Source of the DNA: Eledone cirrhosa
Taxonomy: Eukaryota
Length of the DNA stretch: 64,000 nt
Direction: 5' to 3'
Assembly: GCA_964016885.1 (NCBI GenBank)
Contig: OZ024742.1
Location: 152,892,001-152,956,000 of the forward strand
Below, in pieces: positions 20,362-61,448 of this stretch. Positions within the stretch are counted from its first letter, which is position 1, and the number at the start of each line of letters is the position of its first letter. The notes beneath the pieces are model-generated. The model saw only the letters and a list, made by a program, of their open reading frames with translations, had not been told where the DNA came from and searched no databases. Position numbers and translations under genes: made by a program.

Positions 20362-20847
20362 ACAAAAATGTTTTGAACAGTTCTTTGATTCTTATATTTC
20401 ATATAACTGCTCTGTAAATCATCTCATCTGATGTTTCTACATTGAACTACTTAACTTACTGGTAATAAGGTAGTAATATATTACTGCCTACCACTATTTA
20501 GGGTTTGTATAAAAAATACATATAACTGCAAAAGGTTTTTGTATTCACATAACCATAAATAGTATAATTAATACTATATATATATACATATATATATATA
20601 TACACACATATATATATATATATATATATATATATATATATATATATATATATATATATATATATATATATATATATATATATATATACATATATATATA
20701 TATATATATATATATATATATATATATATATATATATATATATATATATATACACATATATAAATATATATATATATATATATATATATATATATATATA
20801 TATATATAATAAATAAATAACAAAGAACGCTTATAGCATATGCATAT

Positions 20848-20905
20848 CTTTACTTGCTAACATTGTTTCATCCGCACTATAAGTGGGACTCATCAGAGCA
20901 TAAAG
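20848..20905 (-). ncRNA. Minimal type I hammerhead
   Basis: CTTTATGCT-CTGATGA-GTCC CACT tat AGTG c GGAT-GAAA-CAATG-TT-AGCAAGTAAAG on the minus strand. Confidence 0.75.
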
Positions 20906-22626
20906 GTTAATTACATACCATACAAGCAATAACAAATCCAAGACATTGAAGTATGAAAGGTAATAATAGACGATAGAGGATAAGAATAAAAATAAAAATA
21001 AAAATAAAAGTAAAAATAAAAATAAAAATAAAAATAAGGGGTGCTATCAGTCACAGTTGGGCGGTGTGCTGTCAACATATAGTTACATACAAGCATACAC
21101 ATGGATAAGAGAACAGACAAGAGTAGGTAAGATAATGGGATTAGGTAAGAGTAGGTAAAAAATAGGTAAAAAATAGGTAAAAAATAGGTAAAAAATAGGT
21201 AAAAAACAGACTTATAATATATATAAAAAGAAATACAAAGAAATACATAACAAACTTACATATAAAATATAAAATATAGGGTAAGGAATGAGATAAAATA
21301 ATATAAAATTAAAAATTAAAAATTATATACATAGAACATAATATAGTATAATCGTAAAATAAGATAAAATAAGGTAAACTAAAATCAAATAACATAGACT
21401 AAATTAAAATAATATAATATAAGATATAATTAAAATCAAATGTATAATTATATGTATAATTAAATGTAATTAAATGTAATTAAATAAATAAATAAATAAA
21501 TAAATAAAAATTAAATAAATAAATAAAATTAAAATTTAAATTTTAAAATTTAAAAATTAAAATCTAAATTTAAATATAAATAAATAAATAAATAAATAAA
21601 TAAATAAATAAATAAATAAATAAATGGAGTCAAGTAAGTAAATAAATAAAATTAGATAACATGAAATGAAATAAAATAAAATGAAATAAAGTAAATTGAG
21701 ATAAGATATATATTTTTTTAGAATATATCTCTTGAATATATCAGGGGCCCACGAAGGCACTAAATGTCACAGTTATGTGTATCACTTGACCAATTTCTTA
21801 AAATATATTTCTTGAAAACATCAGGGGCCCACGAAGGCACTAAGTGTCACAGTCACCAGTATCACTTGACCATTGCAAGGCAATGGAGGCGTCCCAGGTT
21901 GGGCAGTCTCGAAAGTTCACTCGAAAGTCATGGGTGTGCATTCACACAGTTGAGCGGTGGGGTAATCACAAACCGGTTCACACACCAATTTTTTAAAATA
22001 TATTTCTTGAAAACATCAGGGGCCCACGAAGGCACTAAGTGTCACAGTCACCAGTATCACTTGACCATTGCAAGGCAATGGAGGCGTCCCAGGTTGGGCA
22101 GTCTCGAAAGTTCACTCGAAAGTCATGGGTGTGCATTCACACAGTTGAGCGGTGGGGTAATCACAAACCGGTTCACACACGGGCAGGAGTCGAATGGTCA
22201 GAGAGGTGCATCAAAGGAGGTAGAAGAATTCACATGCATTAGCAAGCGAGGTGAGGTTAAAGCAAGCAGACACAGTTGTAGCGCATACAAAATATATATA
22301 AAAAGACAGAAGATATATAAAAAAAAATAGCTTCAAGAGCCATTAAGTCACCGCATTGGGACATCACAAGATTGTACACATCAATATGTTCAGCACGTAT
22401 ATGCACGTATACACACCACATGCATATGCAGAGACGGTATACATATATATATATATATTTTTTTTTATATATACACACAGACACATATAACCACCTACAC
22501 CCATACACATATAAATGTATACACGGGCACACACGCACACACACACAGACGACCAACATTAGGAGACAGTTACACTCAGTCAGAGACAGTTACACTAGAC
22601 AGCCCAACTGGAGGAATAAGGACGTG

Positions 22627-58400: not shown

Positions 58401-58509
58401 GGTCTGTTGGAGATGCAGGATATGGCAGCGATAATGAGGGACAGAGACCGCTGGATAGAACTCGTCCATGGATCTCGAGAATTTTACCCGCCTTAGATAG
58501 ATAGATATT
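55459..58509 (+). mobile_element. RTE-like LINE inserted in the PLE RT, 8-bp TSD TAGATATT
   Basis: TAGATATT at 55451-55458 and 58502-58509; (TAGA)n tail directly after the stop codon. Confidence 0.93.
55545..58496 (+). CDS. LINE APE endonuclease + reverse transcriptase, 983-aa open frame
   Basis: GTLNVRT, IQEHR, GDFNAH, SDHR, RGISL, FIDFRKAFD, GVLQGDTLAP, FADD, YLG. The true N-terminus probably lies in frame 55457 (AIKIG|TLNVRT) via a 1-nt indel near 55580. Confidence 0.9.
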   Translation: MQFCPAEEPSKLGTLNVRTIRTLEKREELGHLFEESGIQILAIQEHRILHDEPVRSVMIGRKSQLITTSEVKNTTNAAVGGVGFVFSAKTNLFVREIMPISLRVLRVTFNGNPILTVISAYSPTEGDSNVNAEEFHEEVCRAVNTTQAHNILLVLGDFNAHLSKEGSEDPCWYFHNNTNRNGRILRDTLLEAILMATNLRFRKNLGKMWTYISDMHLSKSQIDFILVWKKWRNSVLNTEPYSYFSTLGSDHRLVMSEVRVSLRMSKAQPRRTIYDWGAFKEDDKLQERFTVEVRNRFSALCGESEEREIGWTEESVTRRYGHFTNAVAKASETLVPRKKNKGKHVSSANPKVCAAREHLKAARDQFYTDPTEERMETVEVMREELCTAYTEVREEALIEKIRSVERAVDRSGCKERWMIINEITGRKKRCSSQIQGTGPEDRKRKWLDHFRTLLGELPSTARSTGDIRRLFEELDVETEPFTREELQRAKKKIKEGKDHGKDGVASEVMKRCDFDDIILGFCNGALEKGVAPNQWRISNIVPVPKKGDLSNTNNCRGISLTSLVAKTLNRMILNRIQPEMEKKLRDNQNGFREGRSTTSHILMLSRILEGARAKCLPAVMVFIDFRKAFDSVDRYCLMKILQAYGIPKRIVDLISLLYTNTKAQVITPDGMTEFFEILAGVLQGDTLAPYLFISVVDYCMRLALEKHQDTGFTVAPAQSRRVGAKKVSDAEFADDIVLVTNTVKEAEDLVREVETVSMSVGLRMNETKTKYLVENVEKPEGITNVGGKPLELVEDFLYLGAKIGNTEDDVVERKSKAWAACRSLRPVWKSDLLRDLKIRLFIAVVESVLLYGSETWTLTKRLTQMVDGCYTRMLRMALNINQYTLRMKNSELYGSIPKVSSKVTQRRLRLAGHAHRHPELTLHSVLLWEPLHGHTRRGRPMLTYVDALRTDTGLLEMQDMAAIMRDRDRWIELVHGSREFYPP

Positions 58510-61448
58510 TCTAACTACTATTCATCCATTACCCCTAATCTACTTAATAAGGCACTAAATTACGCATTCAAGCATACAGACCTAACTAGCAATGAAATGC
58601 ACATTATATTATCGGCAAGGAAAACTTTGATAGAATTTAATAACCAACTATGGACTAGGGCAGACAGAGATAATAATGTTGACATTACTATAGGATCATC
58701 AGACACAGCTCAGGTAACGGACCTTGTGGGCCTATTTATAATTAATTCGCTGCATAGGAAAATACCCGGTGTTACCGGAGGTTTATATAGAGATGACATG
58801 CTTTTACTTATTGAAAATAATAACTCTGAACTAAATAAGAAAAGAAAACAAATTATACAATTTTTTAACTACCTTAATCTAAAAATAGAAATTGAGAATA
58901 ACCATAGAATAGTCAATTTCCTAGACGTAACATTTAATCTCAACACATGTCTTCACTATCCATTTCACAAGTTAAATGAAAATTTGAATTATGTCAATTT
59001 TAGCTCCAATCACCCAAGATCTGTCAAAAATACTATAGTGATCTCTGTTCAAAAACGTATCTCTAGAATCTCTTCCAATAAAAATATTTTTGACGAAAAA
59101 GCCCAGTATTATAATGAAGCTTTAGCTAGAGCAGGATATAATGATACAATTATGTACATCGATAATAGACAAACTAACCAAAATAACAACAATTTTAATT
59201 ACAGTAACAACTTTAACAACTATAATAGAAAGCACTACAATAATTTCAAAAACCAGAAAAGAAATAGAACTAGAAATATAATATGGTTTGCCCCCCCTTC
59301 TCACTAAACATTAAAACCCACATCGCTAAACTATTTTTTAATGCTCTTGACAAACGCTTCCCTATAACACATAAGTATCACTCAATTTTCAATAGACATA
59401 CTATAAAATTAATGTACTCGTCCACCAAAAATTTAGCACAAAATATTAATAGAATAAATAATAGGAATCTAAAACCTAGCCAAAATACCGAAAATAGCCT
59501 AAACAATATTCAAGTAAAACACTGTAACTGTAGAGATAGATCTAAATGTCCGCTAAATAACAATTGCTTAGTTAAAAATATAATATACAACTGTAATGTT
59601 AGAACTGATTTAAATTCTTTTAATTATGTTGGTTCCACCTCGACAGAATTTAAACTTCGCTATAATAATCACAAAAATTCTTTCACGGATCCAAATAAAA
59701 AAATCTTCAACATCGCTGTCAGGGTTACTCTGGCAACTTAAGCATGATAAAGTTGGATATTCGATGGTTTGGAATATAGTCTCAAAAGGGATTCCTTTTA
59801 ATTCCTCTTCTGAGACATGTGACCTCTGCGCAGAGGAGATATTCTTTATAATAAAATCTAAAAATTCCCTTAATTTACGAACCAATTTATTCAGCTGCTG
59901 CAGACATAGATTGAACTCAACTTTTAAATATAAATATGAATTTAAAATGTAGTATAAAATGTAGTATATTTACTTAAGATATTTAACTATTTATGAAACT
60001 TGGTGATAAATCTTTCGATTCCTTCAATTTTTTTAAAACCTTTCTGCATGAATATATAATTAATGAGATTAAATAAACTACCCTAAAATCGGCGTTGTTC
60101 CCAATCTTTTGAATAAATTTTTAAGCTGGATAAACTTCTATAATAAATATAAGAGCATTTGAAGAATAAGTTTTGAATGATTTCTGCTAAATAAGGCTTG
60201 GTGAACAATTTTGGTTTTGTTTGCTTTTGATTCTGATTTTATGTGACCGATATGCGTGGCATACTATGTTCTCTTGCGTCCCTAGATACTCTGTGGAGTG
60301 ACGAAGATATTCTTGGCGTTTTTAATTTTTAATATTGATATCTGTTGTCTACACTATGCTTGATCGATAATCATGCAAGTGAGGCTGGAATGTTATTTTA
60401 AATGTTAATGTATATCTTATATATTTTATATATTTTATGTCTATATATATGTATTTATGTATGTAAATGTATGTAGGGTGGAATCTTTTGTAACGCAATG
60501 AAGTTTTTCATGAAATATAAGAATCTGTGCAGCATATCACGTAGGTTCACATGTGTGTCTATATTTATCAACTTGAATTTGAGATAACCTTCTCTTTTCT
60601 CTTTTTCTTTTTTCACGAGAATGCATATATACTTATGTTTGAAGTTTTATCTCAGATTTTGCATATAGACCTAAGAATTTTTAAACTGAGCATGTGGTCA
60701 TTTTTTCACACATAATGGATATGTGTCTCATTCATGAATACTGATATTTACATTATAATACCTAATTCATAAAAATTGATAATTCAAATGGATGAGACAT
60801 AATATATTTTTAATATATTTTAAATATATCATCTTTCTTTCTTTTTCTCCTATACACTGGACGTGATTTATGTGTCGGCTAGTTTAACTGTATCCCTTCC
60901 CTCCTTAACCTCTCACATATACGATGATCATCTGTCCAAAAGCTCCCTACTATATTTGTTCACTTCCTCAATGTATTTCTCTCTCCCATATCTCCTTGTC
61001 TCTCTATCTCGCTCTGTTGTTTTTCTTTACATACATCTCTTCATCTTCTTCTTTTTTATTTACATACATCTCTTCATCTTCTTCTTCTCATCTTCGTTTT
61101 TCTTTCTATATAACTGTCATAACAGTTTCACTACCAAATCAACTTTTTAAATGGAAGTCGCATTATTATAAGGTATGTCAATAATTATTTATAAAACAGC
61201 TTATGTATTGTATTTTGTCTGAGGAAGGCATACCATATTTTTAATATGATATCAAAGAAATATATATAAAGAAATAAATATGGTTTTATAAATATAAATA
61301 TAGTTTCCATTTGTTTAATATCGTATATATATTATATATATATATATTATATATATATATATATATTATATATATATATATATAATATATTATATATATA
61401 TATTATATATATATATATATTATATATATATATATATTATATATATAT

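Follow-up and report, generated by a model that had tools for sequence, protein, structure and literature searches.

Inverted insertions of Penelope-like elements (PLEs) in the genome of Eledone cirrhosa probably arise by a two-primer mechanism, in which the two nicked strands of a (TA)n target each start reverse transcription from one of two sites on the element RNA and the resulting cDNA ends are joined. This reading comes from a window of 64,000 nt (contig OZ024742.1 of assembly GCA_964016885.1, positions 152,892,001 to 152,956,000), and rests on at most 10 events from six families. The shape itself is already known; the details found here point to a two-primer origin. An inverted pLTR with a tail at just one end, which may be either end, has been published (PMC8557442), as have, for a Poseidon PLE in vitro, a pair of reverse transcription start sites and the cutting and extension of both strands (PMC11167929). 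The original prediction, which took as known that Penelope copies can have inverted pLTRs and a short tail, understated how far these two papers go.

Anatomy of the inverted insertions

Self-alignment and a census of exact 14-mer inverted seeds across the window recovered six inverted PLE insertions (S1-S6; Table 1) at the sites originally proposed, with coordinates agreeing within about 4 nt, and the three pLTR families expected among them (A, B and G). As predicted, one arm is longer than its mirror in every case, with exactly one tail each of about 33 or 86-88 nt, and the tailed side varies: it is the inverted 5' arm in S1, S3 and S6 and the 3' arm, contiguous with the ORF, in S4 and S5, while S2 has no ORF and is symmetric. 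From short site to long end, tails measure 86 nt in family A (right in S1, left in S2), 86, 86 and 88 nt in family B (S3, S5 and S6, all left) and about 33 nt in family G (S4, right). The short end falls on the identical base in all three family B copies and no more than 3 nt apart in the two family A copies.

If tails were independent on each arm, one tail in 6/6 structures would have a probability of at most 0.016. Four further one-tailed inversions were found (S7, mini27, mini12 and F2); adding S7 gives 7/7 (P 0.008), and adding the three short inversions gives 10/10 (P 0.001), a count biased by the fact that these three are recognisable only when a tail is present. The tail arm overlaps its partner barely or not at all in three of the four: F2 has no mirrored sequence, and the overlap is 7 nt in mini27 and 13 nt in mini12. 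E1 was left out of the count, as the other arm of its inverted repeat (19841-20253) ends about 140 nt before the short site, fused to a family C ORF; E was also considered as the pLTR of the family C element C-long, with which it shares no similarity. A 49-nt inverted repeat at 44036-44329 was rejected as a zero-tail PLE, having neither TA array, ribozyme nor PLE similarity.

The description of these insertions as fold-back palindromes holds for S2 and S5, which have a palindromic centre, but not for the others, where unique cores of 1.1-3.7 kb separate the arms. Calling inversion the default integration mode was likewise too strong: in this single window 11 of the 19 classifiable TA-bounded copies are inverted and 8 are solo or direct, with 3 further TA-bounded copies outside the 19, and in ORF-anchored families 9 of 12 copies are inverted. 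TA arrays adjoin 10/10 ends of S1, S2, S3, S5 and S6 and mask any target-site duplication, and S4 has 12-13 nt of (AT)n on either side, which would fit a target duplication.

Table 1. Coordinates of inverted, solo and direct elements and of RNA features in the window
Feature	Position	Strand	Description
S1	20808..25350		family A, Hydra clade (putative)
S1 left arm	20808-22548		ends at short site; carries 195-nt duplication
S1 core	22627-23706	-	ORF C-terminus
S1 inverted right arm	23712-25264		tail 25265-25350
S2	27962..29997		family A, no ORF; tail 27962-28047, left arm
S2 centre	29006-29074		both arms end at one self-complementary 10-mer; joined by 24-mer repeats
S3	32719..35322		family B, Hydra clade (putative); tail 32719-32804; inverted arm reaches 33289
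S3 junction and 3' part			brief templated insert; plus-strand ORF C-terminus and 3' UTR; short-site end
S4	37152..41813		family G, Neptune-like; inverted short-site arm 37152-38484
S4 ORF	38486-40545	+	broken, RT/GIY-YIG; tail about 41781-41813 on 3' arm
S5	50408..52357		family B; tail 50408-50493 on long (minus) arm
S5 centre	52230-52278		perfect 49-nt hairpin
S6	54207..61325		family B; near full length, broken by frameshifts and nested LINE
S6 parts			tail 54207-54294; inverted arm to 54616; ORF from 54676
S6 3' arm	61005-61325		short-site end
S6 5' junction	54614..54653	+	tail's last 13 nt in sense, (AT)3, second stem-loop copy 54636-54653
S7	14337..14634		family D; arms about 67 nt; tail about 33-40 nt on inverted left arm
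mini27	27391..27521		family C; inverted short-site arm (about 80 nt), 7-nt microhomology, tail-only arm
mini12	12922..13004		family C; tail + 13 nt joined to 17-nt inverted short-site arm
F2	25577..26234		family F; inverted distal 44 nt of 131-nt tail + 615-nt arm to short site
F1	15161..15718	-	solo tailed family F copy; reference for F tail
C-long	15846..19841	-	tailed Neptune-like PLE; family C reference; 5' end fused to E1
E1	19841..20574		inverted repeat, 188-nt arms; long end at 20574
H	7114..7815	-	direct 1.5-mer of 462-nt hammerhead-bearing unit
I2	61449..62763	+	direct array, 2 x 615 + 85 nt; relative I1 at 53451-54063
Hammerhead core, family A	25172..25202	+	CUGANGA..GAAA motif scan; copies +29912, -28136, -20896
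Stem-loop, family A	25269..25290	+	RCTC-inner stem-UU-GAGY, 4 nt past short site; copy -28043

Both arms of each structure share a common source. Arm substitutions number 7/1538 in S1, 13/939 in S2, 4/475 in S3, 34/1322 in S4, 0/83 in S5 and 1/318 in S6 (0-2.6% divergence), and private variants follow the structure and not the tail state, with 31:0:0 of 925 columns for S1 vs S2, 52:0:0 of 284 for S3 vs S6 and 1:0:0 of 82 for S3 vs S5. Two distinct master pLTRs, one for tailed and one for untailed arms, are supported by 0/925, 0/284 and 0/82 columns and were rejected. The right arm of S5 jumps via brief microhomology to the final 83 nt before the short site.

Start sites, ribozyme and stem-loop

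Families A and B cannot be aligned as DNA (96 of 300 shuffles score as high) and have a common spacing, with 58-65 nt from ribozyme to short site and then 86-88 nt from short to long site. Motif scans detected the hammerhead core with its stems in A (four arms), B (three arms; degenerate in S6), K and H, and found no such motif in C, D, E, F, G or I. An Rfam scan missed the A and B ribozymes; the 150 matches listed of 197 comprise one hammerhead, HH9 at 7388-7459 (E 1.4e-05, below gathering), and otherwise microRNA models lying on microsatellites or palindromes. ARAGORN returned 0 genes.

A stem-loop of the form RCTC..UUGAGY lies 3-6 nt downstream of the short site and occurs again after the long site. 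The motif, defined after inspection of A and B, scores 10 hits where shuffled sequence gives 2.0 on average (at most 6 in 100 shuffles). Eight of the hits lie within 80 nt of a TA run (background about 6%), and two are internal copies; the long-loop form alone, with 4 hits (shuffle mean 1.4, maximum 5), is not above chance. Pairing was taken from single folds, which are weak (-4 to -9 kcal/mol), and RNAalifold gave no pairs on a MAFFT alignment of seven copies whose rows were out of register. The outer pair is G-C in A, the second B copy and I, A-U in the first B copy and M, and G-U in F. The second copy past the long site is visible in B and I only, with none seen in the tails of C, D and G; in S6 the sequence after the long site resembles the start of the tail (0, 0 and 9 of 2000 shuffles as good).

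The start sites have TA microhomology of 2-7 nt (7 sites, Fisher P 0.004). Selection of the site by best TA homology was rejected: family B skips a nearby 9-nt TA run and uses a 2-nt one, so the start position would be set by the particle. Of the 8 cases without a tie, 7 have the longer arm primed at the short site (two-sided P 0.07), as expected if the long site follows the short one on a single RNA. The long cDNA of S6 terminates 10-13 nt beyond a long site, and a tendency of the cDNAs to collide close to the other start site is no more than suggestive (P about 0.07 with lengths modelled as log-uniform). In the literature consulted, the strict long/short pairing, the spacing common to two families and the start-site stem-loop were not found as published.

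Family and clade assignment

Families A and B probably belong to the Hydra clade of PLEs, judged by their protein motifs, their hammerhead and their insertion into (TA)n. The clade is marked by an RWK motif and by DKT replacing DKG; S6 has RWR and DKT aligned to RWK and DKT of its relatives, and this region is missing from family A, whose ORF is represented by its C-terminal part only. Both families have a CxCX5C linker, no CCHH, and CxxC and CxH around the catalytic E and N. Families C and G appear Neptune-like, a clade name given by motifs: the Neptune pattern of a CX2-5CxxC linker and CCHH in the C-terminal endonuclease corresponds in their translations to CX4CxxC ahead of GIY and two cysteines between GIY and YIG, and G has DKG.

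The single ORF with reverse transcriptase and C-terminal GIY-YIG endonuclease that defines EN+ PLEs was identified through families G and B, and the hammerhead lies in the pLTR as in that group. In family G, Pfam matches to RVT_1 (E 0.0016) and GIY-YIG (E 0.00016) fall below the curated cut-offs, and its relatives carry both domains; for family B, tblastn gave 11 relatives (563-737 aa, best E 2.5e-44) whose matches span RT to EN. Pfam found no family on the four A/B pieces and none for 8 of the 11 PLE pieces. The optional 3' tail of EN+ PLEs, formed by the start of the next unit, is seen in S6, where the end of the tail recurs in sense at the 5' junction, ahead of the leader. Families D, E, H and I have no ORF; family D is taken to be a PLE from the anatomy of S7.

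Origin of the inverted insertions

What is observed here is the anatomy, the fixed start sites and the spacing between them, the repetition of the stem-loop and the single source of both arms; the use of a different site by each strand of one target molecule, binding of the stem-loops by protein, a dimer and strand displacement are inferred. Each structure would be a single integration event of an endonuclease-bearing PLE into (TA)n. The PLE protein, probably as two subunits, would nick both strands of the array, and the RNA would present two start sites at fixed spacing, short (S) and long (L, the tail end), each in Hydra-type families a brief UA-rich run 3-6 nt 5' of a stem-loop copy. One nicked strand would prime at S and the other at L, and therefore exactly one tail would result, on either side. 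The two cDNAs would then be joined by their 3' ends via 1-7 nt of microhomology or templated filler; an L cDNA halting at or before S would leave a plain inversion, while one reading past S, whether it displaces the S cDNA or runs onto a second pLTR copy of a tandem or circular RNA, would leave a long inverted repeat. A homodimer prediction run on the 260 N-terminal residues of the S6 ORF, with the alignment unused, scored 0.00 and counts neither for nor against a dimer.

The original interpretation is partly supported. Its core, that opposite strands are primed at two fixed positions of the RNA, is the best-supported reading and now has stronger grounds, namely the tail-only or barely overlapping inversions (F2, mini27 and mini12) and the stem-loop copy after each start site. 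The tailed arm of S1, S3, S6 and S7 needs its own priming because the unique core is contiguous with the untailed arm, and single-strand fold-back cannot produce these four. Against the two-primer model, 8 of 19 classifiable copies are not inverted, the mirrored arms call for displacement or a second pLTR copy, fold-back makes S2, S4 and S5 equally well, and E1 has no short-site end.

The inverted shape has been attributed to self-priming or endonuclease resolution (PMC3846280, PMC8557442): an antisense transcript folds back and primes itself, and the endonuclease resolves the palindromic intermediate with a tail on either end. This is the published interpretation of junction palindromes, it permits the tail on either arm and it agrees with the palindromic centres of S2 and S5, but it predicts mirrored arms, which F2 lacks and which span 7-13 nt in mini27 and mini12. 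Its loops would reach 3.7 kb, nicked target DNA primes on sense RNA in vitro (PMC11167929), and the stem-loop repeat after both sites is left without a reason; self-priming is unlikely. Target-primed reverse transcription starting once, from the tail end, with snap-back copying to the short site would account for the shared private variants and for S2, S4 and S5, whose core is on the tailed arm or whose arms end together, the other forms being later rearrangements. In 7/10 structures (S1, S3, S6, S7, F2, mini27 and mini12), however, the untailed arm extends further upstream, which refutes snap-back as the sole mechanism and makes this an improbable account.

Two separate, opposite insertions at one microsatellite might also be imagined, with arms later homogenised by gene conversion, of which palindrome arms are capable, and TA arrays in the window are insertion hot spots in which several elements share one array. 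No TA array remnant lies between the two 5' ends in any of the 10 structures, independent events would give zero or two tails half the time, and the variants partition entirely by structure; double insertion was rejected on these grounds and is very improbable. An origin as assembly or library fold-back chimeras draws on noise in the TA arrays, on a gap in the assembly (47440-47639) and on a direct repeat of 700 nt that is 100% identical. Yet the arms diverge by 0.3-4.5% in 6/7 two-armed structures, the outer flanks of S1-S6 have no mirror symmetry beyond the arrays (5-191 of 200 shuffles score as high), a chimera should mirror the tail too, and end positions recur across copies, so that this origin was rejected as barely conceivable.

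A more specific form of the two-primer model is put forward tentatively. Hydra-clade RNA may carry a duplicated cis element (UA priming run plus RCTC..UUGAGY stem-loop), the copies about 86 nt apart and at a measured distance from the hammerhead, which would dock the dimer's two reverse transcriptases and make priming of both cut strands on a single RNA a built-in step; the inverted or direct outcome would be set only by whether the strand held at S primes the RNA or the first cDNA. If this is true, one programmed double priming would account for the tail and the inverted pLTR, for the junction palindromes and for the mobility of tandem repeats that lack a ribozyme, such as family I.

The reverse transcriptases of PLEs are the sister group of telomerase. 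Tandem and inverted PLE structures have been ascribed to still undefined features of the transposition cycle (PMC8557442), and the steps past first-strand initiation are described as unvalidated (PMC11167929). The two-primer model offers a testable answer to this question: it assigns the known pair of start sites to the two strands of the target and names a mutable RNA element. For an existing in vitro assay it predicts that the strands of any single target molecule start at different sites, even though each strand uses both overall. If true, it would explain how PLEs seed long inverted repeats in microsatellite-rich genomes.

Comparison with known elements

Like Penelope of Drosophila virilis, Pen of Adineta vaga and Naiad (PMC3846280, PMC8557442), the elements described here have a 5'-truncated inverted copy joined head to head, a tail often at only one end, which may be either, junction palindromes, (TA)n targets, a pLTR hammerhead and Asn-rich ORF inserts. 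In those elements the reported tails are 30-40 nt, whereas here they reach 86-88 nt (A, B) and 131 nt (F), with strict long/short pairing (10/10) and tail-only, non-mirrored inversions. In PAc Poseidon in vitro, two internal start sites likewise bound the tail and both strands are cut and extended, the template is uncut at the ribozyme, initiation occurs at a stem-loop and a dimer is predicted; as presented there, the two sites are not tied to opposite strands or inverted insertions (PMC11167929). The PAc sites are within the ORF and have no homology to the target, in contrast to family B, where the long site precedes the ATG by about 50 nt and both sites have short TA homology.

L1 twin priming provides a parallel in which opposite-orientation cDNAs are primed by two target strands and overlap by a median of 12 bp (PMC12016303). 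Two opposed cDNAs, each joined to one target end, are present in 10 structures here, and brief overlaps occur in mini27, mini12 and the S6 junction. The cDNAs abut, are gapped or briefly overlap, as in L1, in 3/10 (F2, mini27 and mini12), whereas the other seven mirror 72-1550 nt. The first L1 primer is placed at the poly(A) tail and the second site is variable, while both sites here are fixed and internal, with no poly(A), and either may give the longer cDNA. Inversions make up about 20% of L1 insertions (PMC12016303), compared with over half of the copies here.

Families A and B resemble the C-terminal EN+ PLEs of the Hydra clade (PMC8557442) in protein motifs, hammerhead and (TA)n targeting. 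Hydra-clade elements are generally <3 kb, whereas the S6 unit is about 3.75 kb owing to its long 3' UTR, and the account of the clade given in that paper, so far as drawn on here, describes no start-site stem-loop.

Solo and direct copies

A search upstream of the solo family D copy at 42794 found no D tail (59-89 of 200 shuffles as good). K (35340-37135) has a short-type left end 59 nt past its hammerhead and a B-like tail at its right end (0/300 shuffles, by a margin of one point); no mirror was found between the ends (278/300 shuffles score as high), so K, considered as a further inverted insertion, was left unclassified. The solo copy F1 has a long-loop stem-loop 3 nt past its short site, and a degenerate stem-loop occurs in E1 at about 20409.

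H, a non-coding hammerhead tandem unit, and I, a non-coding tandem, resemble animal non-LTR retrozymes (bioRxiv 10.64898/2026.07.22.740005), although motif scans found no hammerhead core in I, which has the start-site stem-loop instead. The 5' TA junction of H lies 64-67 nt past the ribozyme core, the position of the short site. In I2 the stem-loop is 70 nt before the 3' end, and a long-loop copy is 3 nt past the internal equivalent of that end. The stem-loop of family I suggests mobilisation by Hydra-type proteins, and the motif can be used for finding non-autonomous partners.

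Genomic setting

The window, a stretch of AT-rich DNA from an animal, contains 39 TA-rich arrays after merging and carries AP-endonuclease LINEs alongside several families of Penelope-like elements (PLEs). Judged by their motifs (RWR/RWK, DKT, CxCX5C, no CCHH, (TA)n targets and a hammerhead; list from section 11 of PMC8557442), families A and B appear to meet the description of the Hydra clade, and families C and G, with CX4CxxC plus CCHH, are putatively Neptune-like, again by their motifs. Most relatives with names that were found for the family G protein are from bivalves and an octopus, which makes a molluscan host likely; family F is linked to a Hydra-like C-terminus through a relative in the window, and no ORF is present in families D, E, H and I. 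The elements themselves are ordinary members of known clades.

Two-armed inverted structures and their tails

After microsatellite masking, inverted repeats were sought by self-alignment and by an exact-seed census limited to 8 kb. The six inverted structures of the original prediction, each said to bear a tail on exactly one arm, were all recovered by both searches (S1 and S2, family A; S3, S5 and S6, family B; S4, family G), together with S7 (family D) and E1 (here 19841-20253); the remaining inverted-seed clusters were single seeds, junctions inside elements or matches between neighbouring copies. S1-S7 all pair an arm that ends at a short site (S) with an arm that continues to a long site (L), the tail between the two sites measuring 86 nt in A, 86-88 nt in B, ~33 nt in G and 33-40 nt in D. 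S falls on the identical base in all three B copies and at most 3 nt apart in both A copies, and a single tail in seven of seven structures has a probability of at most 0.008 under independent tail gain per arm. As predicted, the tail lies on the inverted arm in some (S1, S3, S6 and also S7) and on the 3' arm in others (the ORF-bearing arm of S4 and S5), S2 being symmetric.

Among 22 TA-bounded candidates in the window, 11 are inverted (S1-S7, E1 and the short inversions mini27, mini12 and F2), 8 are solo or direct (C-long, F1, F3, the solo D copy, E2, H, I1 and I2) and 3 are without class (K, M and J, the last cut by the window edge). The inverted fraction of classified copies is 11/19 (95% interval 0.33-0.80), or 9/12 in ORF-anchored families alone, so that inverted copies are indeed frequent, but to call inversion the default integration mode exceeds a one-window count in which 8/19 are solo or direct.

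Spacing and structure at the start sites

Although the ends of A and B show no DNA alignment, they share two spacings, 58-65 nt between hammerhead core and S and 86-88 nt between S and L; the left end of K lies 59 nt past its own hammerhead core. TA microhomology at the start sites is 2-7 nt (seven sites, Fisher P 0.004), and family B primes at a 2-nt TA site, bypassing a 9-nt TA run ~50 nt upstream. On its 3' side S is followed directly by a stem-loop (RCTC-inner stem-UU-GAGY) at an offset of 4 nt in A, 6 nt in B and 3 nt in F, where the loop is long, with a degenerate copy in family E. Where post-L sequence is visible (the S6 leader and tandem family I), a second stem-loop stands 3 nt past L, and the S6 leader resembles the beginning of the tail, with the score reached by 0, 0 and 9 of 2000 shuffles. 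The compact motif, derived post hoc from A and B, has 10 matches representing five independent copies, whereas 100 shuffles average 2.0 and never exceed 6; a TA run is found no more than 80 nt from 8 of these matches, compared with a background of ~6%. The long-loop form alone stays inside the range expected by chance, RNAalifold returned no consensus pairs from a poor alignment of the copies, and a search of C, D and G found no such motif. In the direct 1.5-mer H the 5' junction is at the S position, a single case which hints that in direct insertions, too, the second target strand is held at S.

Origin of the inverted structures

Our data suggest that these copies probably arose by double priming at S and L on nicked strands of a TA array, followed by joining of the cDNAs. 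Both strands of the array would be nicked, one priming at S and its opposite at L, and the cDNA 3' ends would be joined through short microhomology or templated filler; among the junctions observed, that of S6 has 3 nt and that of mini27 has 7 nt, while S3 carries an 8-nt copy and S2 has repeats of a 24-mer. Exactly one tail is most simply explained if each RNA offers S once and L once. The proposal of two primings at two fixed RNA positions on opposite strands stands as the best reading, owing to the fixed sites and to inversions with nearly no mirror. The long mirrors need something further: displacement of a strand, or another pLTR copy where the RNA is tandem or circular. The data favour neither.

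The short inversions mini27, mini12 and F2, each between TA arrays, show the S-plus-L design almost without a mirror; two primers acting on the same RNA produce inversions of this kind, with nothing duplicated. In mini27 a bare tail is joined to an inverted S arm of 80 nt through a 7-nt microhomology, in mini12 a 17-nt S arm faces the tail plus 13 nt, and in F2, where the full tail would be 131 nt, a 615-nt S arm faces just the final 44 nt of it, inverted. The overlaps in mini27 (7 nt) and mini12 (13 nt) are comparable with those of L1 twin priming, for which section 8 of PMC12016303 gives a median of 12 bp. In S6 the encounter is the reverse one: the S-primed strand spans the entire 3.7-kb unit and stops 10-13 nt beyond an upstream L site, so the tail is where the next unit begins. 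The S arm is longer in seven structures, the L arm in one (S4), and the two are equal in S2 and S5 (two-sided P 0.07). At least two L arms stop within 15 nt of S (chance ~0.07 under a log-uniform length model), which is no more than suggestive of L-arm collision near S.

The inverted one-tailed shape is already known. PMC8557442 describes a 30-40 bp tail that is commonly confined to one end, which may be either of the two, and explains it by endonuclease resolution, and PMC3846280 reports inverted pLTRs with an optional tail and junction palindromes, for which self-priming on an antisense template was proposed. Self-priming followed by endonuclease resolution is, in our assessment, an unlikely source of the present structures, though the strongest competitor. 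Snap-back copying of a single cDNA is somewhat less probable still, since it requires the core beside the tailed arm and this fails in 7 of 10 structures. Two separate insertions at one array would also give opposed copies, but private variants sort with the structure they belong to and in no case with the presence or absence of a tail (31:0:0, 52:0:0 and 1:0:0), and no TA remnant separates the two 5' ends in the inverted structures; each structure therefore represents one event from one source, and double insertion is very improbable. An assembly or library artefact is scarcely credible: the arms of S1-S7 differ by 0-4.5% substitutions and no mirroring was found in their flanks outside the TA arrays, so they are very probably not fold-back chimeras.

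Double priming accords with PMC11167929, in which two start sites bound the tail, both strands are cut and extended, start-site use is the same for both strands and a dimer is predicted. Our literature searches found neither twin priming applied to PLEs nor a description of the start-site stem-loop, although the 2001-2006 Penelope papers cited in these works and the supplements of PMC8557442 may anticipate part of the present findings. With strict S/L pairing, unmirrored inversions, common spacing and a repeated stem-loop, what was a recognised oddity becomes a mechanism definite enough to test.

Neighbouring elements

Further features are collected in the table. The fusion of E1 to C-long arose either because two different RNAs contributed to one chimeric insertion or through a deletion afterwards, and the identical repeats of I2 are either very recent or an assembly duplication.

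Elements and side features in the window
Feature	Position	Observation
LINE	503-4129	nearly intact; one stop, between endonuclease and RT; terminates in several C2H2 zinc fingers
Family F relative	5414-6953	Hydra-like C-terminus
H	7114-7815	direct 1.5-mer
LINE	8667-11840	nearly intact; one stop, between endonuclease and RT
mini12	12922-13004	family C short inversion
S7	14337-14634	family D, inverted
LINE fragment	14836-14990	between TA arrays; 155-nt 3' fragment of the S6-nested LINE family, 92%
F1	15161-15718	solo tailed F copy
F1 5' junction	15623-15718	~75 bases without assignment plus 22-nt repeat of F1's own sequence, like templated end-joining filler
C-long	15846-19841 (minus)	family C PLE with tail
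C-long Asn-rich stretch	18510-19376 (minus)	in ORF; ~290 codons, mostly open; resembles N-rich inserts reported for rotifer Penelopes; A and B linkers have shorter Asn runs
E1	19841-20574	inverted arm fused straight to C-long N-terminal ORF, no TA between
S1 duplication	21789-22180	195-nt tandem duplication in one arm only; S2 centre sits at the matching boundary
F2	25577-26234	family F short inversion
M	26757-27298	between TA arrays; stem-loop 33 nt before left end
mini27	27391-27521	family C short inversion
Non-LTR 3' end	34100-34333 (minus)	in (TAA)n run within S3; C-terminal peptide similar to that of restriction-like-endonuclease LINEs, R4/Dong type
K	35340-37135	left hammerhead and short-type end, right B-like tail, internal old 65% direct repeat, no mirror
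Family G 3' UTR	38133-38165, 40690-40722	33 nt match the tail of family F in antisense (E 0.023), perhaps through capture of a fragment
MITE-like	44036-44329	inverted termini 49 nt (90%), outside TA arrays
Short element	53107-53318	between TA arrays; resembles a tRNA-derived SINE; no tRNA found by ARAGORN
I1	53451-54063	one unit plus ~18 nt, as expected from circular template
LINE in S6	~55460-58500	nested in RT domain; 984-aa open frame, AP endonuclease and RT; presumably RTE-like
I2	61449-62763	2 x 615 + 85 nt, repeats 100% identical
Probable further PLE	62962-64000 (minus)	degenerate 3' end, bounded by TA array, cut by window edge
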